A DNA stretch of 37,945 nucleotides from a virus. The notes beneath the pieces are model-generated. The model did not search any database. It saw only the letters and a program-made list of their open reading frames with translations, and was not told the DNA's origin. This document shows, piece by piece, positions 7,589 to 37,945 of this stretch; the first letter of the stretch is position 1, and each line of letters begins with the position of its first letter. A program made the position numbers and the translations under genes. The stretch lies in IMG/VR virus record IMGVR_UViG_3300010262_000007; one strand, given 5' to 3'.

Positions 7589-8756
7589 GCACGCCCGCTG
7601 CTCCGCATCGGCCGCATACCGCTGGATCAACTGCCCCGGATCCGTCGCCCTGTCTGATCAGTGTCCGGATCCCGGCTCCAGCAGCTACGCCGACGAGGGA
7701 ACAGTCGCCCACAGCCTGGCCGAGCTGAAGCTCCGCCACGTCCTGCATGAGATCACCGACGCCCAGTACAAGAAGCGCCTGGCCAAGATCCAGCAGGACG
7801 ACTACTACAACGGCGAGATGGACGAGGCCACCGACTTCTATGTCGAGACCGTCCTGGAGGAGTTCGCCGCAGCCGGCGAAGGCGCCGAGCTGATGATCGA
7901 GCAGCGCCTCGATCTTTCCCAATGGATCCCGGAAGGCTTCGGCACTTCCGACGCCGTGATCATCGGCGGCAGCATGATCCAGGTCATCGACCTGAAGTAC
8001 GGCAAAGGTATCAAGGTCGAGGCCAAGAACAACCCCCAGTTCCGCCTCTACGGCCTGGGCGCCGTCTCTCTGTTCGGCGATCTCTACGACTTCGACACCG
8101 TGAAGACCACCGTCGTCCAGCCCCGCCTCGATCACGTTGACAGCGAGGTCGTCATCCTGAAGGAGCTGCTGCTCTGGGGCGAGGAGGAAGTCGCGCCCCG
8201 CGCCATCATGGCCATGGAAGGCTCCGACTACTTTGTGGCCGGCGACTGGTGCCGCTTCTGCCCGGCGAAGGCTCGCTGCCGCAAGCGAGCCGAGTTCAAC
8301 CTGGATCTGGCCCGGATGGAGTTCCAGAAGCCCCCACTGCTCTCCAGCGAGGAGATCGGCGAAGTGCTGGCCAAGGCCGAGCACCTGAAGAAGTGGGCCG
8401 AGGAGGTCAGTGCCTACGCTCTGGAGCAGGCCCTGGCCGGTGAGCACTACGACGGCTGGAAGCTGGTCGAAGGCCGCAGCAACCGCAAGTACGCAGACGA
8501 GATCCAGGTGGCCGACAAGCTGAAGGCTGCCGGCTTCGACGAGGCAATGCTCTACCAGCGCAAGCTCTACGGCATCACCGAGATGGAGAAGCTCGTCGGC
8601 AAGAAGAAGCTGGCCGCCACTCTGGGCGACCTGCTGATCAAACCCGCAGGCAAGCCGGTCCTCGTGCCGGAGTCTGATAAACGCGAAGCCATCAACACAA
8701 CCGAAGCGGCTCAGGCCGACTTCACCACCGGCGACGACGAGGTCGCGCCGTTCTAA
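7578..8756 (+). CDS. PD-(D/E)XK nuclease, DUF2800 family (Cas4-like Cys cluster)
   Basis: Starts MPTKHARCSASAAYRWINCPGS (typical DUF2800 N-terminus). Contains IDLKYGKG and C-terminal CRFCPAKARC. ATG at 7578 follows AAAGGAGGA. Confidence 0.8.
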   Translation: MPTKHARCSASAAYRWINCPGSVALSDQCPDPGSSSYADEGTVAHSLAELKLRHVLHEITDAQYKKRLAKIQQDDYYNGEMDEATDFYVETVLEEFAAAGEGAELMIEQRLDLSQWIPEGFGTSDAVIIGGSMIQVIDLKYGKGIKVEAKNNPQFRLYGLGAVSLFGDLYDFDTVKTTVVQPRLDHVDSEVVILKELLLWGEEEVAPRAIMAMEGSDYFVAGDWCRFCPAKARCRKRAEFNLDLARMEFQKPPLLSSEEIGEVLAKAEHLKKWAEEVSAYALEQALAGEHYDGWKLVEGRSNRKYADEIQVADKLKAAGFDEAMLYQRKLYGITEMEKLVGKKKLAATLGDLLIKPAGKPVLVPESDKREAINTTEAAQADFTTGDDEVAPF

Positions 8757-8774: not shown

Positions 8775-9323
8775 ATGTCTACTACCAAAGTTATCACCGG
8801 AAAAGTTCGTTTCAGCTATGTGAACATCTTCAAGAGCCGTGCCTTCCAGGCTGGCCAGGACGCCAAGTACAGCGTGTGCCTGCTGATCCCTAAAGAGGAC
8901 AAGGCCACCATCAAGAAGATCAAGGCAGCCATCGACGCAGCTGTCCAGGACGGCATCAGCTCCAAGTGGGGCGGCAAGAAGCCCGCCAACCTGAAGCAGC
9001 CTCTGCGCGACGGCGACGCCGAGCGTGCCGATGAGGCTCCTGAGTACGAGGGTATGTACTTCCTCAACTGCAACAGCACCCAGAAGCCCGGCATCGTGGA
9101 CAAAGATCTGAACGAGATCCTGGATCTCGACGAGGTCTACTCCGGCTGCTGGGGCCGCGCCTCCATCAACTTCTTCCCCTTCAACACCAACGGCAACAAG
9201 GGTGTCGGCGTCGGCCTGAATAACATCCAGAAGCTGAAGGACGACGACCGCCTGGGCGCTGCCCGTGCTTCTGCCAAGTCCGACTTCGGCGGCGACGACT
9301 TCGAGGACGACGAGGACTTCTAA
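8775..9323 (+). CDS. DUF2815-family single-stranded DNA-binding-like protein
   Basis: Starts TGKVRFSYVNIF. Acidic tail DDFEDDEDF. Sits in the conserved DUF2800-DUF2815-PolA gene order. Confidence 0.75.
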   Translation: MSTTKVITGKVRFSYVNIFKSRAFQAGQDAKYSVCLLIPKEDKATIKKIKAAIDAAVQDGISSKWGGKKPANLKQPLRDGDAERADEAPEYEGMYFLNCNSTQKPGIVDKDLNEILDLDEVYSGCWGRASINFFPFNTNGNKGVGVGLNNIQKLKDDDRLGAARASAKSDFGGDDFEDDEDF

Positions 9324-9336
9324 GGAGGACATACAG

Positions 9337-11310
9337 ATGCACCGAGTTATGGGCGTGGATATAGAAACCTATAGCTCCGTGGACCTGGCCGAGGCGGGCG
9401 TCTACGCCTACGTGGAGGCGCCCGACTTCGACATCCTGCTCATCTCGTACATCTTCGACGACTGGGGCGAGGACGACGTCAAGACCATCGACTGCTTCGA
9501 TGCTGATCCTGACATGATGGCCGAGTTCTGCGAGGCCCTCCTCGATCCCCAGATCGTCAAGACCGCCTTCAACGCGAACTTCGAGCGCACCTGTCTGGCC
9601 AAGTGGCTCCAGAAGCCCATGCCGCCGGAGGAGTGGCGCTGCACGATGGTCAAGGCGCTGACGCTGGGCCTGCCGGGCAATCTGGCAGGCGCCGGCGAGG
9701 CGCTGGGCCTTCCTCCCGAGAAGCTGAAGGACCCCCAGGGCAAGGCTCTGATCCAGTTCTTCTCGAAGCCGTGCAAGCCGACCCGGACCAACGGCCAGAG
9801 GACGCGCAACCTCCCACAGCATGACCCGGCCAAGTGGCAACTCTACAAGAGCTACAACCGGCAGGACGTTGTGACCGAGCAGGAGATCCTACGGAAGCTA
9901 TCCATCTACAAGACACCGGAGTCAGAGCAGGAGCTCTGGGCTCTGGACCAACACATGAACGACAACGGCGTGGCGCTCGACATCCCCATGGTCGAGAAAA
10001 TCGTCGAATATGACACCCGGCGCCGGCAGGAGCTCCAGGAAGAAGCCCAGGAGCTCACCGGGCTGAAAAACCCAAACAGCCTGGCCCAGCTGAAGCGCTG
10101 GCTCGCAGAGCAGGGCGTGGAGATGACCAGCGTCACCAAGGACACCATCACCGAAGCGCTGCGAGATCCGGATCTCCCGGACGTCGTCCGGAGAGTGCTG
10201 GAGATCCGCACCGCCCTGGGCAAGACCAGCGTGGCCAAGTACAGCACGATGCTGGTGGCGCACTGCCAGGATCACCGGCTGCGAGGCATCCTTCAGTTCT
10301 ACGGCGCCAACCGCTCCGGACGCTGGGCCGGCCGTCTGGTGCAGACGCACAACCTGGCCAAGAACACGCTGCCGGATCTGGCCCTGGCCCGCGAGCTGGC
10401 AGCCGAGGGAGACTTCGAGACCATGGGCACGCTGTTCGGAGAGACGGCCTTCGTCTTCTCTGAGCTGATCCGGACGGCCTTCATCCCATCAGAGGGCTGC
10501 CGCTTCGTCGTCTCTGACTTCTCGGCCATCGAGGCCCGCGTGCTGGCGTGGATCGCCGGCGAGGAATGGACCCTGGAAGCTTTCCGGCAGGGCAAGGACA
10601 TCTATTGCGAGACCGCCTCCATGATGTACCACGTGCCCGTGGAAAAGCACGGAGCCAACAGCCACCTCCGCCAAAAAGGAAAGGTCGCAGTTCTGGCCTG
10701 CGGCTACCAAGGCGGCGTCGGCGCCATGAAGCGCATGGACAAGGGCGGCACCATCCCGGAGGACGAGCTCCAGAGCGTCGTGGACCAGTGGCGGGGGGCC
10801 AACCCCAGCGTGGTGAAGCTCTGGCGCAACTGCGAGATGGCAGCCAGGACAGTCATCGAAGAACACCGCACCGTCCGGCTGAAGAACGGCATCGCCTTCG
10901 GCTACGTCAACGGCAACCTGTTCATCAAGCTGCCCAGCGGCCGGAAGCTCTGCTACTGGAACACCCACCTGAAGATGGACCCGAGGGACGGCCGCGAGCA
11001 CATCGTCTACATGGGAGTCAATCAGGAAACCAAGCAATGGGGAGAGACTGAGACCTACGGCGGCAAGCTGGTCGAGAACATCACCCAAGCCATCGCCAGA
11101 GACTGCCTGGCCATATCCATGCAGAGGGTCGCAGCTCTGGGCTATAACATCGTGATGCACGTCCATGACGAGATGATCGTTGACGTGCCAATCGAAGACA
11201 CCGACGCGCTGGAGCGGATCAACGCCTGCATGGGCGAGGCGATCCCCTGGGCGCCCGGTTTACCACTACGGGGCGACGGCTACGAGACCCCGTTCTACAT
11301 GAAAGACTAA
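9337..11310 (+). CDS. Family A DNA polymerase with N-terminal 3'-5' exonuclease
   Basis: Exo motif GVDIETYS. Polymerase motifs DFSAIEARVLAW, RQKGKVAVLACGYQGG and HVHDE. ATG at 9337 follows AAGGAGGA. Confidence 0.85.
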   Translation: MHRVMGVDIETYSSVDLAEAGVYAYVEAPDFDILLISYIFDDWGEDDVKTIDCFDADPDMMAEFCEALLDPQIVKTAFNANFERTCLAKWLQKPMPPEEWRCTMVKALTLGLPGNLAGAGEALGLPPEKLKDPQGKALIQFFSKPCKPTRTNGQRTRNLPQHDPAKWQLYKSYNRQDVVTEQEILRKLSIYKTPESEQELWALDQHMNDNGVALDIPMVEKIVEYDTRRRQELQEEAQELTGLKNPNSLAQLKRWLAEQGVEMTSVTKDTITEALRDPDLPDVVRRVLEIRTALGKTSVAKYSTMLVAHCQDHRLRGILQFYGANRSGRWAGRLVQTHNLAKNTLPDLALARELAAEGDFETMGTLFGETAFVFSELIRTAFIPSEGCRFVVSDFSAIEARVLAWIAGEEWTLEAFRQGKDIYCETASMMYHVPVEKHGANSHLRQKGKVAVLACGYQGGVGAMKRMDKGGTIPEDELQSVVDQWRGANPSVVKLWRNCEMAARTVIEEHRTVRLKNGIAFGYVNGNLFIKLPSGRKLCYWNTHLKMDPRDGREHIVYMGVNQETKQWGETETYGGKLVENITQAIARDCLAISMQRVAALGYNIVMHVHDEMIVDVPIEDTDALERINACMGEAIPWAPGLPLRGDGYETPFYMKD

Positions 11311-11323
11311 GGAGGACACACAA

Positions 11324-11881
11324 ATGAAAATTAACCGCACCATGACCATCGAAACCAACGAGATCCAGATCGGCGACCGCATCCAGGTCGGCCACTATAC
11401 CGCCACCTGCCAGGCTCTGCCTGGCGAAGGCCTGGCTCTTTTCCTTCTGGACCAGTATCTCGACAAGGCCATGCAGATGAACGAGAAGAACACCAACAAG
11501 GGCGGCTACCAGGAGAGCGATCTCCGCGAGGAGCTCAACAGCGAGAAGATTCTGAAGGACTTCACTGGTCTGGAGCTGGCGCCCTTCGACAACGGCGATC
11601 TGCTCCGTCTGCCGTTCTACGGCGAGATGTTCGGGCACGATGACTGGTACAACTCCGGCGCCGTGGAGCCTGACGACTGCGAGCAGTGGCCTCTGATGAA
11701 GGAACGCGCCAATCGCGTCGCCGAACGCAAGGGCGAAAGCTACGAGTGGGGATGGCTCCAGAACAAGTACGTCCAGTCGGCGACGGATTTCTGCGGTGTC
11801 GGCGACGACGGTTATGCCTACGCCTGGAACGCCTCGAACTCCATCGGCGTCCGCCCGGCTTTCCTGATCAAATTATCGTAA
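11324..11881 (+). CDS. DGR target protein 1: small non-structural protein with C-terminal CLec-type variable region
   Basis: C-terminus ...WLQNKYVQSATDFCGVGDDGYAYAWNASNSIGVRPAFLIKLS parallels the fibre target. Its last ~94 nt are a near-copy of 35576..35669 and 36292..36390. Confidence 0.8.
   Translation: MKINRTMTIETNEIQIGDRIQVGHYTATCQALPGEGLALFLLDQYLDKAMQMNEKNTNKGGYQESDLREELNSEKILKDFTGLELAPFDNGDLLRLPFYGEMFGHDDWYNSGAVEPDDCEQWPLMKERANRVAERKGESYEWGWLQNKYVQSATDFCGVGDDGYAYAWNASNSIGVRPAFLIKLS
11770..11863 (+). repeat. DGR variable region VR1
   Basis: In the 89-nt core (of 94 nt) it differs from VR2 at 15 positions, all at codon position 1 or 2. Shares the GC-rich 3' block TCGGCGTCCGCCCGG. Confidence 0.8.
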
Positions 11882-11885
11882 ATCC

Positions 11886-11904
11886 CGGGGGCCTCGTGCC
11901 CCCG
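11886..11904 (+). promoter_or_regulatory. GC hairpin downstream of VR1 (DGR target-recognition hairpin/cruciform candidate)
   Basis: Stem CGGGGGC / GCCCCCG with loop CTCGT, about 22 nt after the VR homology ends. Same loop and spacing as 35690..35710. Confidence 0.65.
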
Positions 11905-11936: not shown

Positions 11937-12425
11937 ATGGAGCCTATCACTATACGCTGGGAGACCGGCTACATGACCATCAACCCGGACGCCTTTTTCC
12001 CAACAAGCACAGCCAGGATCCGGAAGCTCCTCCGGGTGGTCGCCCTGGACTTTGAGCATCAGGACGTCATCCGGATGCAGCTGGCCGGGGCCTGCGAGAG
12101 CCGAGCCCAGGAGATTCTGGATGGCCGCAAGAGCCTCGCCAACGAGGCAGTAAACCACCACCAAAAGGCAGCGGACCTGGAGCCGCAGATCGAGACGGCC
12201 AAGCGCCGGATCACCACCCTCCGGGCCTGCATCAAAGAGCAGCCAAAGAGGGCCCGCCAGCTGGGATACCCTGAACGGCTGCACGAGGAACGGGAACAGC
12301 TGAAGAAGCTGACCGCCGAGCGCTCCGGAGCCCTCTCAGCCTTCCGGAAGAAAAAGCGCGAGTTCGAGGCCGCTGAGGCCACGGCTGAAAAATTAAGACA
12401 GAACGCGGAGGTGCTGAGACCATGA
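11937..12425 (+). CDS. Hypothetical coiled-coil protein
   Basis: 162-aa ORF. RBS AAGGAGGA. Stop overlaps the primase start. Confidence 0.55.
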   Translation: MEPITIRWETGYMTINPDAFFPTSTARIRKLLRVVALDFEHQDVIRMQLAGACESRAQEILDGRKSLANEAVNHHQKAADLEPQIETAKRRITTLRACIKEQPKRARQLGYPERLHEEREQLKKLTAERSGALSAFRKKKREFEAAEATAEKLRQNAEVLRP

Positions 12426-14872
12426 CCAACACAGCGGAAAAACTCACCCTGCCCCTGTTCATGGTCAAGTACAACGGCGACCTCCTGATCTCGACCGGCC
12501 GCAGCCGCTTCGAGACCTCCTGGAAGAATAAGACCATGAGCTGGGCGGCTCTCCTGAATAAGCTCTCCCGCTCCATGGAGACCACAGAGACCCACGCCGA
12601 GTACATGAAGATGAGTAAGGAGCAGCAGGACAAGATCAAGGACATCGGCGGCTTCGTCGGCGGTCATCTGAGGGATGGCCGCCGCAAGACCGGCTACGTC
12701 ACAGCCCGCCAGCTGCTCACCCTCGACCTGGACTTCCCTCCGGCCGAGTTCTGGGACAATATCATCGACAACCTGGAGATCGACAACGCCCTGGCGGTCT
12801 ACTCCACACATAAGCACACCAAGGCGAAGCCCCGCTACCGTCTGATCATGCCCCTCGACAGAGAGGTCACGCCGGACGAGTACGAGGCCATCGCCCGCAA
12901 GATCGCCGAGAAGATCGGCATCGACTACTTCGACGACTCTACCTTCCAGCCGACCCGTCTGATGTACTGGCCGAGCCATAGCGTGGACGTCGAGCCCTTC
13001 TTCCAATACTACGACGCCCCCTTCCTGGCGGCTGACTCCATCCTGGCAGAGTACCCGGACTGGACCGACACCAGCTACTGGCCGGAGTCGTCCCGTATGG
13101 TGGGCATCAGAAAGAGGGACGCCGACCGGCAGGGCGATCCGCTGGAGAAGAAGGGCCCCCTGGGTGCCTTCTGCCGCACCTACAGCATCACCGAGGCCAT
13201 CGCCAAGTTCCTGCCGGACGTCTACACTCCGACGGCCAAAGAGGACCGCTACACCTACGCAGCCGGCTCAACTGCTGCCGGCCTCGTGATCTATGACGGC
13301 GACGTGTTCGCCTACTCCAACCACAGCACTGACCCGGCCGGAGGCCGCCTCTGCAACGCCTTCGACCTGGTCCGCATCCACAAGTTCGGCCACCTGGACG
13401 AAGGCAAGGAAGACAAAGCAGTCAATCAGCTCCCGAGCCAGAAGGCCATGTATGCGTTCGCGAACGAAGACCCGGGCGTCAGCCTGACGCTCGCGAACGA
13501 CCGAAAGAGCCAGCAGGTTCTGGAATTCGAGGGCGTGCCGCTCCCGGATGACATCGACAACAGCTGGAAGACGAAACTGGTCCGAGGCGAAAATGGCGAC
13601 GTCAAGCCGCTGATCACCAACGCCGTGCTGATCCTGGAGAACGAGCCCGCCCTTCAGGGGATCCGCTACAACGAGCTGAGCAACGGCATCGAGGTCAAGG
13701 GCAAACTGCCCTGGCCGCGCCCCAACAAATACTGGAGAGACGTGGATGACGCCCATCTCTACACCTGGGTGGCGGACACCTACGGCGTCCAGTTCCCGGA
13801 GAGCCGCTTCAGCAAGGCGCTCTCCACGGTCGCAGACAAGCGACGCTTCAACCCTCTGCGGGAATACCTCCAGCAGCTCCCCGAGTGGGACAACGTGCCG
13901 AGAGTGGACACGCTGCTGGTCGATTACCTGGGCGCCAAGGACTCAGCCTACACCCGGGCCGTCACCCGCAAGACTCTGATCGGAGCCGTCCAGCGCGTGC
14001 TGCAGCCTGGATGCAAGTTCGACACCGTCCTCGTCCTGGACGGCAAGCCCGGCATCGGCAAGAGCACCCTGCTCCGGAAGCTGGGCGGGAAATGGTTCAG
14101 CGACTCCCTCAGCCTGGCCGACACCAGGGACAAGACCGCAGCCGAGAAGCTCCAGGGCGTCTGGATCATGGAAATCGGCGAGATGCAGGGCACCCGCAAG
14201 GCCGACGTCGATGTGATGAAGGGCTTCATCAGCCGCCAGGTGGACGAGTACCGCGCAGCTTATGGCCGCGTCGTGGAGCGCCATCCGAGGACGGCCATCA
14301 TCTGCGGCACCACCAACAGCACCGGCGGCTTCTTGAGAGACACCACCGGCAACCGGCGCTTCTGGCCCGTCACCGTCAACGGAGGCGGCCACCTCAGCGT
14401 CTGGGAGATGACCGAGGAGACCCGCGCCCAGATCTGGGCTGAGGCCATGGTCTACGTGGCCGAGGGCGAGACGTCCTACCTGGACGCCGCGATGGAGCTG
14501 GAAGCGACCAAGGCCCAGCAGGCAGCGCTCATGTACGACGAGCGCGAGGGCGACGTCATCGACTACCTGGAGACCCTGCTGCCGGCAGACTGGGAGGACT
14601 GGGATCTGATGCAGCGCGTGGACTACTTCCAGCAGCGTGACGTCCTGGACGCCACAAAGCAGACGGGCACCGTGCAGAGGACCAAGGTCAGCGTGATGGA
14701 GATCTTCTGCGAGTGCTTCGGAAGGGCCAAGCACTACTGGACCCGCAAGGACGGCGACGAGATCGTGGCCATCATGGCGAGGATCCCGGGCTGGGAAAGG
14801 CCCGCAAATGCCACCATGCGAAGCAAAGCATACGGCAAGCAGCGCGTGTTCGTCCGGAGTGGTAACGAGTAA
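12422..14872 (+). CDS. Primase/helicase-like replication protein (prim-pol N-terminus plus VirE-type P-loop domain)
   Basis: 816 aa. P-loop VLDGKPGIGKSTLLRKLGG, followed by Walker B-like VWIMEIGEM and a VirE-family-like C-terminal half. Confidence 0.8.
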   Translation: MTNTAEKLTLPLFMVKYNGDLLISTGRSRFETSWKNKTMSWAALLNKLSRSMETTETHAEYMKMSKEQQDKIKDIGGFVGGHLRDGRRKTGYVTARQLLTLDLDFPPAEFWDNIIDNLEIDNALAVYSTHKHTKAKPRYRLIMPLDREVTPDEYEAIARKIAEKIGIDYFDDSTFQPTRLMYWPSHSVDVEPFFQYYDAPFLAADSILAEYPDWTDTSYWPESSRMVGIRKRDADRQGDPLEKKGPLGAFCRTYSITEAIAKFLPDVYTPTAKEDRYTYAAGSTAAGLVIYDGDVFAYSNHSTDPAGGRLCNAFDLVRIHKFGHLDEGKEDKAVNQLPSQKAMYAFANEDPGVSLTLANDRKSQQVLEFEGVPLPDDIDNSWKTKLVRGENGDVKPLITNAVLILENEPALQGIRYNELSNGIEVKGKLPWPRPNKYWRDVDDAHLYTWVADTYGVQFPESRFSKALSTVADKRRFNPLREYLQQLPEWDNVPRVDTLLVDYLGAKDSAYTRAVTRKTLIGAVQRVLQPGCKFDTVLVLDGKPGIGKSTLLRKLGGKWFSDSLSLADTRDKTAAEKLQGVWIMEIGEMQGTRKADVDVMKGFISRQVDEYRAAYGRVVERHPRTAIICGTTNSTGGFLRDTTGNRRFWPVTVNGGGHLSVWEMTEETRAQIWAEAMVYVAEGETSYLDAAMELEATKAQQAALMYDEREGDVIDYLETLLPADWEDWDLMQRVDYFQQRDVLDATKQTGTVQRTKVSVMEIFCECFGRAKHYWTRKDGDEIVAIMARIPGWERPANATMRSKAYGKQRVFVRSGNE

Positions 14873-28533: not shown

Positions 28534-29180
28534 ACCTTCTGATCGACGGCCTGCCTGAGGAGGTCGAGATCGCGGGCCAGCTGGTCCCGATCACCACGGA
28601 CTTCCGCACGGGGATCCTGTTCGAGGAAGTCCTGCAAGACGGCCAGCTCGATGACCTGGAGAAACTCAGGACCGCGCTGGATCTCTACTTCCCGGGCGTC
28701 GTCTTCGATGGCGACGTGCTCGACGAGGCGATCAGCAAAATGATCTGGTTTTATCGCTGCGGCACGGATCCCGCTGAGACGACGGAAGAAGACGCCACGG
28801 ACAGCAGCGACAAGGATCCGCCTTTTTCCTACGAGTACGACGCCGACTATATTTACTCCGCGTTTATGCAGGCCTACGGCCTGGATCTGGCGCGGCATCC
28901 CCTCCACTGGTGGCAGTTTCGAGCGCTTTTTCGATCGCTCCCTGAAGAGACTCAGCTGGTCAAAATCATCGGCTACCGCACGATGAAGATCCCGGCCAAG
29001 GCGTCCAAGGAGCAACGGCAGCATTATGAGCACCTGAAGCGCGTCTATGCGCTCCCTCAGTCGGCTGACCGGCAGCAGCTTGAAAGTGACCTGAACTCTC
29101 TACTCATGAACGGCGGCAACCCCGCCGTCCTTTTGACAGGAGGAGAAGGTCATGGCATCAGACGGGACTCTGAAATTTGA
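28530..29180 (+). CDS. Gp15-like tail assembly protein (gpT-like); start uncertain (CTG start or -1 frameshift fusion)
   Basis: The frame is open from 28524. It encodes a conserved-looking N-terminus, NLLIDGLPEEVEIAGQLVPITTDFRTGILFEEVL, with no ATG/GTG/TTG before 28716. The frame is -1 relative to 28123..28533. Confidence 0.55.
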   Translation: MNLLIDGLPEEVEIAGQLVPITTDFRTGILFEEVLQDGQLDDLEKLRTALDLYFPGVVFDGDVLDEAISKMIWFYRCGTDPAETTEEDATDSSDKDPPFSYEYDADYIYSAFMQAYGLDLARHPLHWWQFRALFRSLPEETQLVKIIGYRTMKIPAKASKEQRQHYEHLKRVYALPQSADRQQLESDLNSLLMNGGNPAVLLTGGEGHGIRRDSEI

Positions 29181-31689
29181 TACAAGCCTGGACACTGGCG
29201 GCCTACAGTCCGGCATGGGCAAGGTCGCGAGCGTCGCTCAGCAGGCGCTGGGCGTATTCACCGGCCAGATGATGACCAGAGCAGTTGATGCTCTGGCCAA
29301 TCTCGGCAAGTCAGCTCTCGACAGTGTGGGGCAACTGGAGCAGAACGTCGGAGGCGTGGAGACGCTCTTCGGCGATGCAGCTGACGCGGTCATCGCGTCG
29401 GCAGATCGGGCCTACCAGACGGCGGGCATGTCTGCCAATGACTACATGAGCACGGTCACGAGCTTCTCGGCGTCCCTGCTCCAGTCCCTCGGCGGAAATA
29501 CCGAGGAAGCGGCCAAAGTGGCCGACATGGCCATCATCGACATGGCCGACAACGCGAACAAGATGGGGACGTCCATGGACATGATCCAGAACGCCTACCA
29601 GGGCTTCGCGAAACAAAATTACACGATGCTGGACAACCTGAAGCTCGGCTACGGCGGCACCAAGACCGAGATGGAGCGCCTCCTGGCTGATGCTGAAAAG
29701 CTGACCGGCGTCAAGTATGACATTAACAATTTGAACGACGTCTACCAGGCGATCCACGCGGTCCAGGAGGAAATGGGGATCACCGGCACCACGGCCAAAG
29801 AGGCCGCGAGTACGCTGGAGGGCTCCATGGCTTCGGCCAAGGCCGCCTGGGACAACTTCATGAACGGCTCCGGCGACGCGGACCAGCTGGCGGACGCCTT
29901 CGCCACGGCAGCGGACAATATCGTCAAGAACCTCGCCGAGATCATTCCGCGCTTCGCTGAGACGCTTCCAGCGCTCGGCAGCGCCATTATTGTGCAGATC
30001 CCGGGTCTGGTGGCTGCCATCGTTCCGGCCGTGCTCTCAGCAGGCCAGAGCGTTCTGAAGCAGCTCCAGGACGCGGTCCTGAACTTCGACTTCGCCGGAA
30101 CAGCTGACAAGGTCGTCCAGATGATCACGGGCTTCATCGAAGGCGACGGACTGGGCTCTCTCCTGGACACTCTTGCCACAATTTTCACCGGCATCGTGAA
30201 TGGCATCAGCTCCATGCTGCCGTCGCTTCTGCCTGCGCTGATCGAGCTGATCAGCTACGTTGTGACCTCACTCCTGGACCAGCTGCCCGCAATCCTCGAC
30301 TGCGCGCTGGAGCTGATCCTCGGTCTGGCTCAGGGCATCCTTGCGGCGCTTCCTGTACTGATCGAAGCACTGCCGGAGGTCATCAGCTCCATCGTGGAGT
30401 TCCTGATCTCGGCCATCCCGCAAATCATTGACGCCGGCATCGAGCTCCTGATGGCACTGGTGGACGCCCTGCCTGTCATCATCGACGCGCTGGTGGACGC
30501 CCTGCCTCAGATCATCAAGGCCACCGTGACGGCTCTGATCGCCGCAGCACCCCAGATCGCGAAGGCTGGCATCAAGCTCCTGGGGGCCCTGATCGAAGCC
30601 ATCCCAGTCATCGTGGTCGAGCTGGCGAAGGCCGTGCCGGACATCGTCGCGGCCATCATCGACGTGCTGGCCGAGCTTCCCGGTCTGATCGGCGAAGTCT
30701 TCGCCGAGATCGTGACGGACCTCGTCGAGTGGGGCCAGCAGATGCTCAGCAATGCCTCCACGGCCATGAGCAATATGCTCAGCCAGGTCAACAGCATCAT
30801 CCAGGAACTCCCTGGCAAGATCTGGACGCACCTGGTCAATGCGGTGAACAAGGTCATCGCCTGGGGCCAGCAGATGCTCAGCAATGCTTCGACCGCCATG
30901 AGCAATATGCTCAGCAAGGTCAGCGGCATCATCCAGGAGCTACCCGGAAAGATCTGGACGCACCTGGTCAACACCGTCAATAAAGTGGTGGCCTGGGGCC
31001 AGCAGATGGTCTCCAACGCTTCGACCGCAGCGAGCAATATGCTCAGCAAGGTCTCCAGCACGCTCCAGCAGCTCCCGGGCAAGGTCTGGGACTATCTGAG
31101 CCAGGCGGCCCAGAAGGTCGTCACCTGGGGCACACAGCTGGCCCAGAAGGGCGCCGCAGCGGCGACCCAGCTGTTCAACTCCATCGTCAACGGGCTCAGC
31201 AGCCTGCCGAGCAAGATGGCGGAGATCGGCAGCAACATCGTCAGCGGCATCTGGAACGGCATCAGCTCTGGCTGGAACTGGCTGACGAACAAGGTCAGCA
31301 ACCTGGCCAACAGGCTGCTGAACGCCGCGAAAGACGCCCTCGGCATCAACTCCCCGTCCAAAGAGTTCGCGGACGAGGTCGGCCGCTGGATCATGCCCGG
31401 CGTGGGCAAGGGCCTGGACAAGTCCATGCCTGCAACGCTGAAGGACATGAGGGCCAAGGCCGGCGAGCTCGTCAGTGCCATGCGGGCCGAGATGTCGGCA
31501 AGCGCCGGGCAGCTAACCGTCGGAGCTTCGCACGCTGCGGGGCTGAGAATGGCGGGCGCCGGCACTACCGTCTACAATGATAATCGCATGGAGCAGAGCA
31601 ACACCTACAACGTGCCTGTGGCTACTCCTTCCGAGGTGGCCAAGAAGCAGCGCGAGGCTCTGCGGAACATGGTCGGAGGTGTGAAATGA
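29152..31689 (+). CDS. Tape measure protein
   Basis: 845 aa, helical Ala/Leu/Ile-rich, with internal 44-aa tandem repeats. Located after the chaperones. Confidence 0.9.
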   Translation: MASDGTLKFDTSLDTGGLQSGMGKVASVAQQALGVFTGQMMTRAVDALANLGKSALDSVGQLEQNVGGVETLFGDAADAVIASADRAYQTAGMSANDYMSTVTSFSASLLQSLGGNTEEAAKVADMAIIDMADNANKMGTSMDMIQNAYQGFAKQNYTMLDNLKLGYGGTKTEMERLLADAEKLTGVKYDINNLNDVYQAIHAVQEEMGITGTTAKEAASTLEGSMASAKAAWDNFMNGSGDADQLADAFATAADNIVKNLAEIIPRFAETLPALGSAIIVQIPGLVAAIVPAVLSAGQSVLKQLQDAVLNFDFAGTADKVVQMITGFIEGDGLGSLLDTLATIFTGIVNGISSMLPSLLPALIELISYVVTSLLDQLPAILDCALELILGLAQGILAALPVLIEALPEVISSIVEFLISAIPQIIDAGIELLMALVDALPVIIDALVDALPQIIKATVTALIAAAPQIAKAGIKLLGALIEAIPVIVVELAKAVPDIVAAIIDVLAELPGLIGEVFAEIVTDLVEWGQQMLSNASTAMSNMLSQVNSIIQELPGKIWTHLVNAVNKVIAWGQQMLSNASTAMSNMLSKVSGIIQELPGKIWTHLVNTVNKVVAWGQQMVSNASTAASNMLSKVSSTLQQLPGKVWDYLSQAAQKVVTWGTQLAQKGAAAATQLFNSIVNGLSSLPSKMAEIGSNIVSGIWNGISSGWNWLTNKVSNLANRLLNAAKDALGINSPSKEFADEVGRWIMPGVGKGLDKSMPATLKDMRAKAGELVSAMRAEMSASAGQLTVGASHAAGLRMAGAGTTVYNDNRMEQSNTYNVPVATPSEVAKKQREALRNMVGGVK
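30730..31257 (+). repeat. 132-bp (44-aa) tandem repeats in the tape measure gene: three close copies plus a degenerate fourth
   Basis: TGGGGCCAGCAGATG recurs at 30730, 30862 and 30994. A divergent unit (TGGGGCACACAGCTG) starts at 31126. Confidence 0.85.
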
Positions 31690-33720: not shown

Positions 33721-34698
33721 ATGGCCATGAGATACGGCTATTTTGACTCGGAGATCACCGGCGTGGACTCCGAGGGTATGCCTATTTTTGACAGAGCAGA
33801 GACGTCGGAACTGTTCCGCCTGCTCTTTTCCAAACTGCTGACCAATGGCGTGCTGGCCAAGCCTGCCGACTGCTTCAAAGTGCTGGCAGGCGACACTGGC
33901 CTGAGCGTCACGGTCCGCCCTGGCTTCGGCCTGATCAACGGCGCCTTCGCCTATGATCCCGCCCCTGCCACTTTCCAGCTGGCCGCAGCTCCAACGAGCT
34001 ACAGCCGCATCGACCGCGTCGTGCTGCGCTGCAACTACCTGGAGCGCCTCTGCGAGATCATCGTGAAGACCGGCACGGCAGCGACAACGCCCCAGGCTCC
34101 GGAGCTCATCCAGCCCGTCAGCGGTGACTACTACGAGCTGGGCCTGGCAAATGTAACGGTCAGCGCCAACCAGACCGTCATCACTCAGAGCTCCATCAAC
34201 GACACCCGCCCCAACAGCGCAGTCTGCGGCTACATCACCCAGTTCATTGACAGCATCGACACCGAGGCCTTCTATGACCAGTTCAATGCCTTCTATGCCG
34301 AGTTTGTGGCCAAGTCCAACGCCAGCTACTCCCAGTTCGAGCAGATGGCCAGAGCAGCCTATGACGGCTTCACGGCTGCCATCGACGAATACATCGAGGC
34401 GCTGGAGACCAAGGGCAACACAGATCTGACCGCCGTCACGGAGGCCATGAAAGAGTTCCAGCGCACCAGCCAGAACGCTTTCAACGAGTGGTTTGCCACC
34501 GTGCGGGGCCTTCTGGACGAGGACGTCGCCGGCAGGCTCATCAACAAGACGAACGATCTGGACGAGCGCCTGACCGCTCTGGAATACATGATCATCCACA
34601 ACGATCTGTTCACTCACGTCGTTGACGATGACGGCAACCCGATCCTGGACGACGATGGCAACGCGATCATCGGCGACTGGAAATATAAAACCGCATAA
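33721..34698 (+). CDS. Tail fibre / baseplate structural protein with coiled-coil C-terminal half
   Basis: 325 aa, between the Gp37-like protein and the DGR-diversified fibre. Confidence 0.5.
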   Translation: MAMRYGYFDSEITGVDSEGMPIFDRAETSELFRLLFSKLLTNGVLAKPADCFKVLAGDTGLSVTVRPGFGLINGAFAYDPAPATFQLAAAPTSYSRIDRVVLRCNYLERLCEIIVKTGTAATTPQAPELIQPVSGDYYELGLANVTVSANQTVITQSSINDTRPNSAVCGYITQFIDSIDTEAFYDQFNAFYAEFVAKSNASYSQFEQMARAAYDGFTAAIDEYIEALETKGNTDLTAVTEAMKEFQRTSQNAFNEWFATVRGLLDEDVAGRLINKTNDLDERLTALEYMIIHNDLFTHVVDDDGNPILDDDGNAIIGDWKYKTA

Positions 34699-34709
34699 GG
34701 AGGAACATT

Positions 34710-35681
34710 ATGCAGATTGACGTAACAAACGGCAAACGCTTCACAGAGTACGACGCGCTGGCTGCCGTAGCCAGCGAGGAGGACGTTCTCCTGGTACGAC
34801 TCGCAGACGGCGCAGGCGTCAAGAGGATCCCTATCAGCGCCATCAAGGCCTTCATCAATGGAGACCTGGACACGCTGGAGACTGAGGACAAGACCAGCCT
34901 GATCGCCGCCATCAACGAAGTCTTCGGCCTGGTAGGCACCAATGCCCAAGACATCAAAGCCCTGAAGGAGCTGACCACAATGCTCGGCCAGACTGGGGCA
35001 TCCAGGGCCAACTCCTTCATCTATGAGCACGACCTCGGCACCAGCTTCACCGCTGAGCAGTCCGCCGACATCCGTGCCGGCAAGTTTGAGAAGGTCCGCA
35101 CTGGCGGCTACTGGACCATCAACGGCCACAAATACTGGGCCGCCCATGCTAACTACCGTCTGCACTGCGGCGACACCGAGCTGACCACCCACCATATGCT
35201 GGTCATCCCCGACAAGCCCTTCTATAACGGCGTGATGAATGACACTAACGTCACGACCGGCTCCTACTACGGCAGCAAGATGAAGACCTCCGGCCTGGCC
35301 AACGCTCTGGCCACTGTCAAGGCTGACTTCGGCGCAGACCACATCCTGACTCACAGGATCCTCCTGGCCAACGCTGTCAGCAATGGCGCCAGCTCCGGCT
35401 GGGCATGGTACGACAGCCAGATCGACCTGATGAACGAGCACATGGTCTACGGCTCCTACGCATGGGGCGGCGGAGCGCAGAACGGCTACGACGTCGGGGC
35501 AGACAAGAGCCAGCTGGCTCTGTTCCAGGCACGCCCGGATCTGATCACGAACAGAGAGAACTGGTGGCTGAGAGACGTCCGGTCGGCGTCGCATTTCTGC
35601 AGTGTCAGCGGCAGCGGTGGTGCCAACGACGGGAACGCCTCGTACTCCTTCGGCGTCCGCCCGGCTTTCCTGATCTATTGA
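34710..35681 (+). CDS. DGR target protein 2: receptor-binding tail fibre with C-terminal CLec-type variable region (Mtd analogue)
   Basis: C-terminus ...NRENWWLRDVRSASHFCSVSGSGGANDGNASYSFGVRPAFLIY. Its last ~94 nt are repeated in the TR-like segment and in VR1. Confidence 0.85.
   Translation: MQIDVTNGKRFTEYDALAAVASEEDVLLVRLADGAGVKRIPISAIKAFINGDLDTLETEDKTSLIAAINEVFGLVGTNAQDIKALKELTTMLGQTGASRANSFIYEHDLGTSFTAEQSADIRAGKFEKVRTGGYWTINGHKYWAAHANYRLHCGDTELTTHHMLVIPDKPFYNGVMNDTNVTTGSYYGSKMKTSGLANALATVKADFGADHILTHRILLANAVSNGASSGWAWYDSQIDLMNEHMVYGSYAWGGGAQNGYDVGADKSQLALFQARPDLITNRENWWLRDVRSASHFCSVSGSGGANDGNASYSFGVRPAFLIY
35576..35669 (+). repeat. DGR variable region VR2
   Basis: 94 nt, aligned to VR1 and to 36292..36390. 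Ends in the GC-rich block TCGGCGTCCGCCCGG (IMH-like). Confidence 0.8.
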
Positions 35682-35689
35682 TCAAAAAT

Positions 35690-35710
35690 CCCGGCCCCTC
35701 GTGGGCCGGG
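35690..35710 (+). promoter_or_regulatory. GC hairpin downstream of VR2 (DGR target-recognition hairpin candidate)
   Basis: Stem CCCGGCCC / GGGCCGGG with loop CTCGT, about 20 nt after the VR homology ends. Confidence 0.65.
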
Positions 35711-35737
35711 TAAATCTAATCAAGGAGATAAGATAGC

Positions 35738-36265
35738 GTGTCAGACATCCCCAAAAGTAAAAGAGCATATTCCAACCTGGAAGCGCACCACAAGGCGCTG
35801 GAGATCCGCAGGAAGATCGCGGTGGAGCTCCTGGCCGGCTTCGCCTACAGCGAGAAAAAGCTGGAGGAAGCCGTCCGGAAGCAGACGCAACACATCCAGG
35901 ACCCTGAGCATAGGGCGGAGGCCGCCCAGGCCATCCGCAACCTGGAGGAAGACTTCGCCTGCTGGTTTATCAAGCGCCACCGCGACCGGGTGGACGACCT
36001 CTGCTGCGACATCGCGCAGCATCTCAGAGGCGCCAATACCATCTGGCCGACCTACCACTTCGAGTATAAGGACAGGCGCGGTGAGCTAAACCAGGCGCTG
36101 AAGTGCTGCAACAAGCTCCAGGACGAGCTCCAGTACATCGCCGAGTCGCTGCCGGCAGACAAGAACAAGTATATGGACATCGTGCTGGAAGTCGAGGCCC
36201 TGTTCAACATGATCAAGGCACTGCGGCAGTCTGACAACCGTCTCCTGAAGCATCTGAAAGACTAA
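35738..36265 (+). CDS. avd: Accessory variability determinant (Avd-like helical-bundle protein)
   Basis: GTG start after AAGGAG. 175 aa, all-helical and basic. Occupies the canonical slot between VR and TR. Longer than typical Avd proteins. Confidence 0.6.
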   Translation: MSDIPKSKRAYSNLEAHHKALEIRRKIAVELLAGFAYSEKKLEEAVRKQTQHIQDPEHRAEAAQAIRNLEEDFACWFIKRHRDRVDDLCCDIAQHLRGANTIWPTYHFEYKDRRGELNQALKCCNKLQDELQYIAESLPADKNKYMDIVLEVEALFNMIKALRQSDNRLLKHLKD

Positions 36266-36291
36266 GAATATAGGGTGTCCTCTGTACGGGC

Positions 36292-36390
36292 CGTCCGGTC
36301 GGCGGCGGGTTTCTGCGGGGTCGTCTGCGCCGGGGGGGGGGGCCGGCGCCTGGGCCGGCCTCGCCCTCCCTCGGCGTCCGCCCGGATTTC
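36292..36390 (+). repeat. DGR template-repeat-like segment (non-coding, adenine-free, 5 nt longer than the VRs)
   Basis: Shares CGTCCGGTCGGCG...TTTCTGC...TCGGCGTCCGCCCGG with both VRs. No A between 36287 and 36385. Lies between avd and the RT gene. Confidence 0.7.
36332..36342 (+). repeat. Homopolymeric G11 tract inside the TR-like segment
   Basis: Counted directly: gcgcc-ggggggggggg-ccggcg. Confidence 0.95.
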
Positions 36391-36502
36391 ACAACTGCAC
36401 AAAGTCATCGGGCAAGTTCCCGCGTGCAGCAATGGGAAAGGAGAGGCCATCCTTCCAGCGGAAGCTGGTAAATGCTAACCAGGACGCTCCCGGTCACGAC
36501 CG

Positions 36503-37828
36503 ATGGGGCTATCGCGTGGTTTTTATATGACTGTATATTTTGATGCTAATAACATTTATGACGCCGGGACCAAGGCGATGCAAAGCAGCAAGTTCAAACA
36601 CGGCACCCAGCTGTTCGAGATGAACCACCTGCTGACCACTGCCCACATCCGGCAGGACTTTATCACCGGCGACTACAAGCCGGATCCGGGCAACAAGTTC
36701 CCGATCAATGAGCGCGGGCATCCGCGCTACATAACCAGTAACACGATGGTGGACAAGACGGTCAACCATCTGCTCTGCGACGAGGTGCTGACGCCGTCCA
36801 TCAGCAAGTACCTGATCTATGACAACGGCGCCTCACAGAAGGGCAAGGGTGTGGCTTTCCATCGTCGCCGCTTCGAGGCTCGACTGCATCAGTATTTCAT
36901 GCAAAACGGCACCAACGAGGGATACATCCTCCTGGTGGACTTCTCCGGCTATTATGCCAACATCCCGCACGACAAGTGCCTGGAGGTGCTCCAGACGTTC
37001 CTGGAGCGCGAAGTCGAAGATCCGGAGACGCTGGCCATCACTGAGATGCTGCTGCCGCTCATCTTCAAGACCTTCGAGCAGGACGTCTCTCGTTTCACTG
37101 ACAAGGAGATCGAGGCGATGATGGCCGGAAAAATCGACCCGATGCTGAACTACGGCGTGGATCCAGCGCTCCTGACCGGCGAGAAAATGCTCCGGAAGGG
37201 TGTGGACATCGGCTCCCAGCCTTCGCAGAACATCGGCATCGTCTACCCCTACCGGCTGGACAATTATGCCAAGATCGTCAAGGCGGTCAAAGGATACGGC
37301 CGTTATACCGATGACTCCTACGCAATCGCCCGGACCCGGGAGGAGCTGCTGGAACTTCTGGACGGTCTGGAGAAGGAGGCGAAAGAGTATGGGCTGATAA
37401 TTAACCGCAAGAAAACCAGGATCGTGAAATTGTCCTCAGAGTTCCGGCACCTGCAGGTGTGCTACTCCTTAACAGAGACCGGCAGAATTATCCGGAAGAT
37501 CAACCCGAAGAACATCACAAGGGAGCGGCGCAAGCTGAAGGCCTACAAGCGCCTGCTCGATAGCGGCCGCATCGACTACGCGACGGTCGAGAACGCCTTC
37601 AAGTCCTGGCTGGGAAGTCACTGGAAGTATATGTCGCATGATCAAGTTTATAACATGAGCAGCCTCTACTATGAGCTGTTCGGAAGGAGACCAAAATGGA
37701 AAAAAGGACATGGAAGATTACACTGGCTGATGGCACATCCCTCGACGGCCTCGACCTCAACGGGAACAACTACATCAGCTCCGCCGCCGTCGCCGAGGCC
37801 ACCTTCGCCGGTAAGCTCTCCAGCGTGA
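36503..37828 (+). CDS. DGR-type reverse transcriptase
   Basis: LLVDFSGYYANIPH, IGSQPSQ (the [LIV]GxxxSQ DGR signature), GRYTDDSYAIA (YxDD) and NRKKTRIV. The start is uncertain (ATG at 36503 or 36527, neither with a clear RBS). The last ~44 codons overlap the next gene. Confidence 0.85.
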   Translation: MGLSRGFYMTVYFDANNIYDAGTKAMQSSKFKHGTQLFEMNHLLTTAHIRQDFITGDYKPDPGNKFPINERGHPRYITSNTMVDKTVNHLLCDEVLTPSISKYLIYDNGASQKGKGVAFHRRRFEARLHQYFMQNGTNEGYILLVDFSGYYANIPHDKCLEVLQTFLEREVEDPETLAITEMLLPLIFKTFEQDVSRFTDKEIEAMMAGKIDPMLNYGVDPALLTGEKMLRKGVDIGSQPSQNIGIVYPYRLDNYAKIVKAVKGYGRYTDDSYAIARTREELLELLDGLEKEAKEYGLIINRKKTRIVKLSSEFRHLQVCYSLTETGRIIRKINPKNITRERRKLKAYKRLLDSGRIDYATVENAFKSWLGSHWKYMSHDQVYNMSSLYYELFGRRPKWKKGHGRLHWLMAHPSTASTSTGTTTSAPPPSPRPPSPVSSPA

Positions 37829-37945
37829 CCATCGAGGGGCCTGACGGCACCCAGACCTATCAGGACATGAAGCTGGTCCAGATCAGCAAGGTCGGCAAGA
37901 GTTACTGGTTTATCCTGGCCGAGAAGACGGCTGAGGAAAAGCAGA
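37696..37945 (+). CDS. Hypothetical phage protein, N-terminal part of the wrap-around gene (continues at 124..224)
   Basis: ATG at 37696 is preceded by GGAAGGAGA (37682..37690). The frame is open to the window end and identical to 3..123 across the repeat. Confidence 0.6.
   Translation, partial: MEKRTWKITLADGTSLDGLDLNGNNYISSAAVAEATFAGKLSSVTIEGPDGTQTYQDMKLVQISKVGKSYWFILAEKTAEEKQ
37823..37945. repeat. Direct terminal repeat, right copy
   Basis: Identical to 1..123. Confidence 0.95.

Follow-up and report, generated by a model that had tools for sequence, protein, structure and literature searches.

The window analysed here is the whole 37,945-nt stretch of DNA, the circularly assembled genome of a temperate gut siphovirus that encodes a serine recombinase and an HTH repressor. 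Its sequence is a MEGAHIT short-read metagenome contig (ENA ERZ27241761, k141_105821) and is collinear with that of Acutalibacter phage Fontainebleau (ON453893); from polymerase to helicase, the two are 76.6% identical at the nucleotide level. Positions 1-123 are repeated exactly at 37823-37945, and this 123-nt terminal direct repeat marks the window as a circular or terminally redundant assembly. The 845-aa ORF at 29152-31689, presumably the tape measure gene, contains three tandem 132-nt (44-codon) repeats (30722-31117) with 72-86% identity, and similar 132-nt repeats are present in the tape measure gene of Fontainebleau.

A DGR cassette occupies the right end of the window and is composed of a tail-fibre-like target (target gene 2), a 175-aa accessory ORF, a template repeat (TR) and a reverse transcriptase (RT). 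The coordinates of these elements, and of the additional target discussed below (target gene 1), are given in Table 1. The RT is identified by matches to RVT_1 (E = 2e-11) and phrog_1423 (E = 4e-45) and by a sequence motif that can be read directly; against the PDB it shows a weak match to reverse transcriptase 8ub7. The accessory ORF is 56% identical to its Fontainebleau counterpart. A further ORF starts with an ATG at 37696, preceded by GGAAGGAG, in a different frame from the RT. It overlaps the last ~130 nt of the RT ORF, whose stop codon lies at 37826-37828, and crosses the circular junction into positions 3-224.

Table 1. Elements of the DGR and of its two target genes in the window.
Feature	Position	Strand	Basis or remark
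Target gene 1, 185-aa stand-alone DUF6273 protein	11324-11881	+	phrog_21980 family; model matches DUF6273 proteins in BFVD
VR1, whole	11771-11863	+	Homology to VR2 and TR
VR1, mutagenised part	11771-11845	+	12 of the 23 template-adenine positions of the repeat body substituted, between 11775 and 11824
IMH-like 3' block, GGCGTCCGCCCGGCTTTCCTGATC	11846-11869	+	Same in VR1 and VR2
GC-rich hairpin after VR1	11886-11904	+	5 nt past the stop codon; 7-bp stem, CTCGT loop
Target gene 2, 323-aa tail-fibre-like protein with C-terminal DUF6273 domain	34710-35681	+	
VR2	35577-35669	+	Inside target gene 2
Hairpin downstream of VR2	35690-35710	+	8-bp stem, CTCGT loop
175-aa ORF in accessory (Avd-like) position	35738-36265	+	Position; no Pfam, PHROG or PDB match
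Template repeat, degenerate in this genome	36288-36390	+	IMH* and both flanks intact
Reverse transcriptase	36503-37828	+	RVT_1, phrog_1423, motif IGSQPSQ

Target gene 1 begins with an ATG codon that has a strong Shine-Dalgarno sequence (AGGAGG) 8 nt upstream, and is preceded at a distance of 13 nt by the end of a family-A DNA polymerase ORF (9265-11310). On its 3' side follow a 162-aa ORF (11937-12425) and a VapE-type primase-helicase (12422-14872). The original prediction had placed the gene in the replication module, between polymerase and primase, and this location is correct, with the 162-aa ORF as one extra gene before the primase-helicase. The predicted distance of about 24 kb between VR1 and the TR is likewise correct along the window (24.4 kb), and is reduced to ~13 kb across the circular junction. 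The gene lies outside the late module, the tail genes being found at ~29-35.7 kb.

A scan for promoters and terminators between 7 and 16 kb revealed no promoter-like site on the + strand and no terminator after target gene 1, and the hairpin at 11886-11904 is not followed by a T-run. Together with the short gaps on both sides of the gene (13 nt and 55 nt), this would be compatible with co-transcription of target gene 1 and its neighbours.

The 3' end of target gene 1 is homologous to VR2 and to the TR, as had been predicted. The segments 11769-11888 and 35575-35694 share 83% identity over 120 nt, and both match 36292-36390. All 15 differences between VR1 and VR2 are located at codon position 1 or 2, in agreement with the original prediction; the probability of this distribution by chance is (2/3)^15 = 0.002. 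Furthermore, 14 of these differences fall on adenines of the TR found in close relatives of the phage (P = 2e-9).

The repeats also share the GC-rich 3' block that the prediction had described for both targets. GGCGTCCGCCCGGCTTTCCTGATC is identical in VR1 and VR2, and its counterpart in the TR is GGCGTCCGCCCGGATTTCACAAC (IMH*). At the 3' end of the repeats, the GC-rich IMH reads GGCGTCCGCCCGGCTTTC in both VRs versus GGCGTCCGCCCGGATTTC in the TR, and IMH and IMH* of the window differ by one base in the first 18.

Each target also has the same hairpin downstream, located 5-9 nt past the stop codon and formed by a 7-8-bp GC stem. The two hairpins share the CTCGT loop, and their stems differ by compensatory changes. 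Folding energies are -9.5 kcal/mol (z = -3.4) after VR1 and -11.5 kcal/mol (z = -4.4) after VR2. A stem-loop such as the one at 11886-11904 is what would be expected on the 3' side of a DGR target.

Upstream of the VRs, the absence of obvious similarity between the two target genes that had been noted holds at the nucleotide level, and with it the view that the pair did not arise by simple gene duplication. It does not extend to the protein level, where weak homology reaches ~45 residues upstream of the VR. The two proteins show 41% identity over 79 aa and an hhalign probability of 97%, with the homology limited to the last 66-79 residues.

In the window, the repeat body of the TR contains no adenines, so that an adenine pattern can be read only against the TR of relatives. 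When VR1 is compared with the window's own TR, the mismatches fall on G, C or T and the adenine-only pattern is not found. We therefore used as reference the TR that relatives carry in a cassette 97.8% identical to that of the window (34600-37945); this TR reads GTCCAGTCGGCGACGAATTTCTGCAATGTCAACAACAACGGTAATGCCAACAACTGGAACGCCTCGAACTCCATC and is followed by IMH*. Against this intact TR, all 12 mismatches of VR1 are located on adenines (P = 6e-9), with eight changes to G, two to T and two to C, and every one of them is at codon position 1 or 2. For VR2, 14 of 15 mismatches are on adenines.

The same pattern is observed among related sequences. Across 18 distinct related sequences, 22 of the 23 TR-adenine columns are variable versus 5 of the 61 other columns. 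This is the site-restricted variation in relatives that the original prediction had called for, and it is strong. In 20 IMG/VR contigs carrying target gene 1, the per-site entropy rises abruptly only in the VR, and there only at codon positions 1 and 2. In 30 proteins from two clusters at ≥90% identity, each of the 13 codons that contain a template adenine is variable, and such a site takes 8 different residues on average. Target gene 1 is 80-96% identical among relatives, versus 95-100% for the flanking genes, and up to 4810 distinct sequences are found within single 90% clusters. Fontainebleau has the same two-VR layout, an adenine-rich TR and the same pattern of adenine mismatches.

VR1 qualifies as a genuine DGR target because all of its differences are on TR adenines and because variation in relatives is concentrated in the TR-adenine columns; the IMH and the hairpin complete the picture of a real remote target, as proposed. 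Judged by these sequence signatures, the single DGR of this phage does have a second target at a distance, namely the ORF at 11324-11881.

The TR of this genome is abnormal. Besides the lack of adenines, its repeat is 5 nt longer than the VRs, and it shows 32 differences from the TR of relatives within ~85 nt. The changes comprise 24 replaced adenines (16 to G, 6 to C and 2 to T), three T-to-G substitutions inside the new G runs, and five inserted G that create a run of 11 G. Relatives that are otherwise ~99% identical to the window keep the adenine-rich TR, and in the same comparison the 1.3-kb RT shows 13 substitutions and no indel, leaving it intact. No adenine has been replaced in IMH* or in either flank of the TR, and the tract of substitutions stops at the GC block. 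As in the VRs, the spectrum of substitutions is biased towards G.

A scan with the IMH* sequence retrieved 91 TR loci of this phage group, 45 of them from IMG/VR and 46 from metagenomes; 89 are intact. One locus (OLRV01014129.1) has A-to-N changes together with a TGG-to-GGG change in the 3' half of the TR only, and may represent an intermediate of TR self-mutagenesis. In another (OLPB01002597.1, here L157), the upstream flank of VR2 is joined to the downstream flank of the TR, either by a VR2-TR recombination that deleted the accessory gene or in an assembly chimera.

In the simplest reading, the adenine-free TR would have arisen by a rare retrohoming event in which mutagenised cDNA was inserted into the TR itself. 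Such an event is plausible because only that single base separates IMH from IMH* in the first 18, and a TR with zero adenines would be the absorbing end state of self-homing. Raw cDNA or sequencing error was considered as the source and rejected: the flank adenines are intact and the tract is bounded by the GC block of IMH*, as in homing products. An assembly artefact is unlikely.

Provided that the assembly is right, the DGR of this genome has probably lost the ability to change VR1 and VR2 through adenine mutagenesis, since no adenines are left in the TR, and both VRs would be frozen records of earlier diversification. Further homing from the 5-nt-longer TR would shift the reading frame of both targets; as both VRs are still in frame, no homing would have occurred since the TR changed. 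The adenine-free TR would then be a natural example of a DGR that destroyed its own template, a 'burnt-out' DGR.

By analogy with the Bordetella system, whose mutagenic retrohoming is summarised in PMC12875486, the RT would copy the TR RNA and insert wrong nucleotides opposite its adenines, and the mutated cDNA would replace the 3' end of target gene 1. Homing to VR1 would be directed by the IMH block and the hairpin that follows it (Table 1), the same two elements that flank VR2. The pattern of substitutions establishes the mechanism of diversification as such, while its individual steps would follow the Bordetella paradigm. In this lineage, one template feeds two VRs that diversify independently. 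A VR1 and a VR2 taken from the same genome are about as similar as a pair taken from different genomes: on average 8.0 versus 7.8 of 22 sites are alike (permutation p = 0.43, n = 8). A shared ligand of the two VRs, or their co-conversion, was also considered, and this comparison gives no signal of either.

The target gene 1 protein is acidic (pI 4.6) and has a mass of ~21 kDa. The original prediction had pointed to the lack of a signal peptide; none is present, nor is there a transmembrane or other hydrophobic segment. The protein matches phrog_21980 of the PHROGs over its full length (E = 7e-35). Its match to Pfam DUF6273 (PF19789) scores 29.2 bits, versus a cut-off of 23.5, with only residues 123-183 aligned. 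VR1 encodes residues 150-180 of 185, that is, the C-terminal end of the DUF6273 domain.

An earlier AF2 run with a shallow alignment gave pLDDT values below 50 for residues 104-174. With a diverse alignment, the model reached a pLDDT of 74.5 and a pTM of 0.78, with low confidence at residues 150-172, within the VR. Foldseek searches of BFVD with this model retrieved four stand-alone proteins of 163-206 aa, three of them annotated as DUF6273 (E = 1e-6 to 2e-5), with TM scores of 0.52-0.62 over the full length. Against the PDB, Foldseek gave no match at E ≤ 0.001 for the model, which is of low confidence in the VR, and a profile search of PDB sequences with the protein gave none at E ≤ 1. The assignment of a C-type-lectin fold is taken from the literature on DUF6273. 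The whole of the 185 residues forms one domain and no N-terminal virion-attachment or shaft domain is observed; the protein is a stand-alone single DUF6273 domain.

Profile searches collected 2481 clusters of the family at 90% identity; at 50% identity the numbers are 133, 561 and 1410 clusters for E ≤ 1e-30, 1e-10 and 1e-3, respectively. The best 150 representatives have a median length of 192 aa and a maximum of 379 aa. Homologues are found in prophages of Oscillospiraceae, Lachnospiraceae, Ruminococcus and relatives. This is a large family of proteins of ~180-200 aa from temperate phages of Clostridia. A strict GC hairpin with a five-base loop is located a few bases past the stop codon in 28 of 36 prophage copies, and a weaker one in most of the others; the loop is CTTGT in most, with variants such as CTCGT elsewhere. 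The retention of these hairpins in most prophage copies implies that being a DGR target is a property of the entire family.

Wherever the neighbours could be read, the genes of this family sit in early or replication regions. Acutalibacter-type phages have the order PolA-target-orf162-VapE. In larger Lachnospiraceae phages, the target is located among small early genes together with methylases, DUF6353 and a nucleoside deoxyribosyltransferase-like gene. We did not find the consistent early or replication placement of the phrog_21980-type subfamily across backbones stated in the literature compared.

Several variants of the architecture were observed in the family. One locus (L035) contains two paralogous stand-alone targets ~2 kb apart (7788-8366 and 9977-10522), and a 389-aa protein (P0163/P0164) is a tandem two-domain fusion of the target. 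In two further loci (L026, 10001-10834; L032, 10001-10759), a C-terminal extension of ~70-95 aa with a repeated helical motif, 'FNEKQR..LYY', places the VR inside the protein. Pfam searches gave nothing significant in the extensions of L026, L032 and P0165.

Two explanations would deny VR1 its status as a DGR target. The likeness of VR1 and VR2 could reflect duplication or gene conversion of paralogous C-termini followed by point mutation, with no retroelement involved, and the two proteins are indeed distant paralogues over their last ~79 residues. This origin is effectively refuted by the confinement of variation to template-adenine columns and to codon positions 1 and 2, by a substitution spectrum of G-biased A-to-N changes, and by the IMH and hairpin elements, which are non-coding and yet kept in both targets and across the family; in addition, a homologue in Roseburia phage Shimadzu has been seen mutating in culture and in mice (10.1101/575076). 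VR1 might also be a copy of VR2 or the TR misplaced by the metagenome assembler, as repeats can mislead assemblers, the source is a short-read MEGAHIT contig, and one VR2/TR chimeric contig (L157) is known among the loci. However, VR1 is in frame within an ORF that has conserved unique flanks, and more than 20 independent contigs, 36 bacterial genomes and the cultured phage Fontainebleau all carry the gene together with a VR of its own, which makes a misassembly of VR1 vanishingly improbable.

The function of the protein allows for a more serious alternative, namely that it is an ordinary structural receptor-binding component, such as an adhesin docked non-covalently on the tail tip or a decoration protein, encoded outside the late module, with VR1 as a standard host-range target. 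The DUF6273 domain is common to target 1 and to the tip of the tail-fibre-like target 2, both VRs are fed from the same template sequence space, and published work takes small DUF6273 targets as receptor-binding proteins. On the other hand, the single domain makes up the whole protein and leaves no attachment module, and even the longest of the best 150 family representatives remain within the length limit given above. The gene lies in early or replication regions of several backbones, whose structural genes form tight late operons, and VR1 resembles the VR2 of its own genome no more than the VR2 of another. We regard a structural role as less likely than not. Three features make us lean towards a protein that is not an integral component of the tail or virion: its early context in several unrelated backbones, the missing attachment domain, and a VR that does not correlate with that of the tail protein. 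We propose that it would act as a soluble, variable ligand binder made together with early genes.

As a whole, the explanation that we hold with good confidence is that of a second, non-adjacent DGR target that would encode a soluble variable binder and whose VR, like that of the tail-fibre-like target, would now be frozen. A broader proposal is more speculative and would have to be called doubtful at present: phrog_21980-type proteins in general may be early-expressed, non-virion hypervariable binders, so that one DGR both retargets the tail and diversifies a soluble protein, an arrangement conserved across unrelated backbones. If this were true, the soluble DUF6273 protein would act inside the infected cell or after its release by lysis. 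It might counter variable factors of host defence or of the host surface, or serve as a lectin that masks receptors or works as a decoy, and would constitute a second, non-structural arm of DGR-driven adaptation in unrelated phage backbones.

Large DGR surveys mostly see RT-adjacent targets, and phage DGRs are read as host-range tools. The window offers a clean, well-replicated case of one template feeding two unlike proteins. Moreover, a cultured and inducible representative is available in Fontainebleau, carried by a strain of the OMM12 mouse consortium, Acutalibacter muris KB18, so that the role of a non-tail phage DGR target can be tested directly. The DGR of Fontainebleau has two VRs and an intact TR (9801-9917, 34391-34507 and 35106-35222). 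In the GenBank record the cassette is annotated only as 'reverse transcriptase' and hypothetical proteins, and the text of the paper on this phage contains neither 'DGR' nor 'retroelement'.

The DGR described here resembles that of Bordetella phage BPP-1 in its adenine-specific mutagenic retrohoming, in the C-terminal position of the VR and in the location of the TR between the accessory gene, a putative one in the window, and the RT (PMC12875486). Both systems also have a GC-rich IMH with an inverted repeat behind it on the 3' side of the VR, and an IMH* in the TR. In contrast, the BPP-1 target Mtd is a single, adjacent, structural tail-fibre protein. Furthermore, neither sequence comparison nor Foldseek detects a similarity of target 1 to solved structures. 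A further difference from BPP-1 is that IMH and IMH* of the window are separated by only one base in the first 18.

A second remote target is already known in kind, and both homologous and analogous cases have been published. The original prediction had considered such a target unusual for phage DGRs. This view has to be given up: non-adjacent second targets in prophages are documented (PMC5758913), and orf43 of Shimadzu and the targets of Toutatis, Lelie, CP11 and nd4/nd12 are similar. Wu et al. 2018 (PMC5758913) reported many phage DGRs with one adjacent and one non-adjacent target less than 50 kb away in the same prophage; their survey did not characterise the family of target gene 1 or its steady placement in early regions. 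The approach of another DGR survey (PMC8144416) would not detect remote targets.

Small DUF6273 proteins as second targets have been described in several phages. The target 2 proteins of nd4/nd12 (Baykov et al. 2023, PMC10743442), counted here among the analogous small DUF6273 targets, were interpreted by the authors as receptor-binding proteins of the Mtd-like type. Faecalibacterium phage Toutatis encodes gp24, a small DUF6273 second target located ~17.5 kb from the TR. It is part of the core genome, with early genes as neighbours and the replication initiator further downstream; Lelie and CP11 have analogous second targets, likewise small DUF6273 proteins (10.1101/2024.10.15.618418; PMC11792537). 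The relationship of gp24 to target 1 is remote, as hhalign aligns only 29 residues around the VR with a probability of 31%. The partner targets also differ, being a Hoc-like or Ig-domain 'tentaclin' in Toutatis and a tail-fibre-like protein in the window.

The published homologue is orf43 of Roseburia phage Shimadzu (LR596903), which tblastn aligns at 30% identity over 81% of the query (E = 3e-7). It aligns with the target gene 1 protein through conserved motifs and gives a full DUF6273 hit. Like target gene 1, orf43 is a small gene of the early region, located between a methyltransferase gene and the Erf, SSB and replication initiation genes. It lies ~13 kb from the TR and is the second target beside a tail-gene target that adjoins Avd-TR-RT. 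Cornuault et al. (bioRxiv 10.1101/575076) described it as VR2, 'of unknown function'; it carried 10-15 DGR-type mismatches in ~2% of virion reads and was mutated both in vitro and in mice. Shimadzu differs in being a myovirus of a Lachnospiraceae host with another replication module, and orf43, with 209 aa, has an insertion near the N-terminus. Finally, the TR of Shimadzu is intact and active, whereas that of the window has been emptied of adenines.
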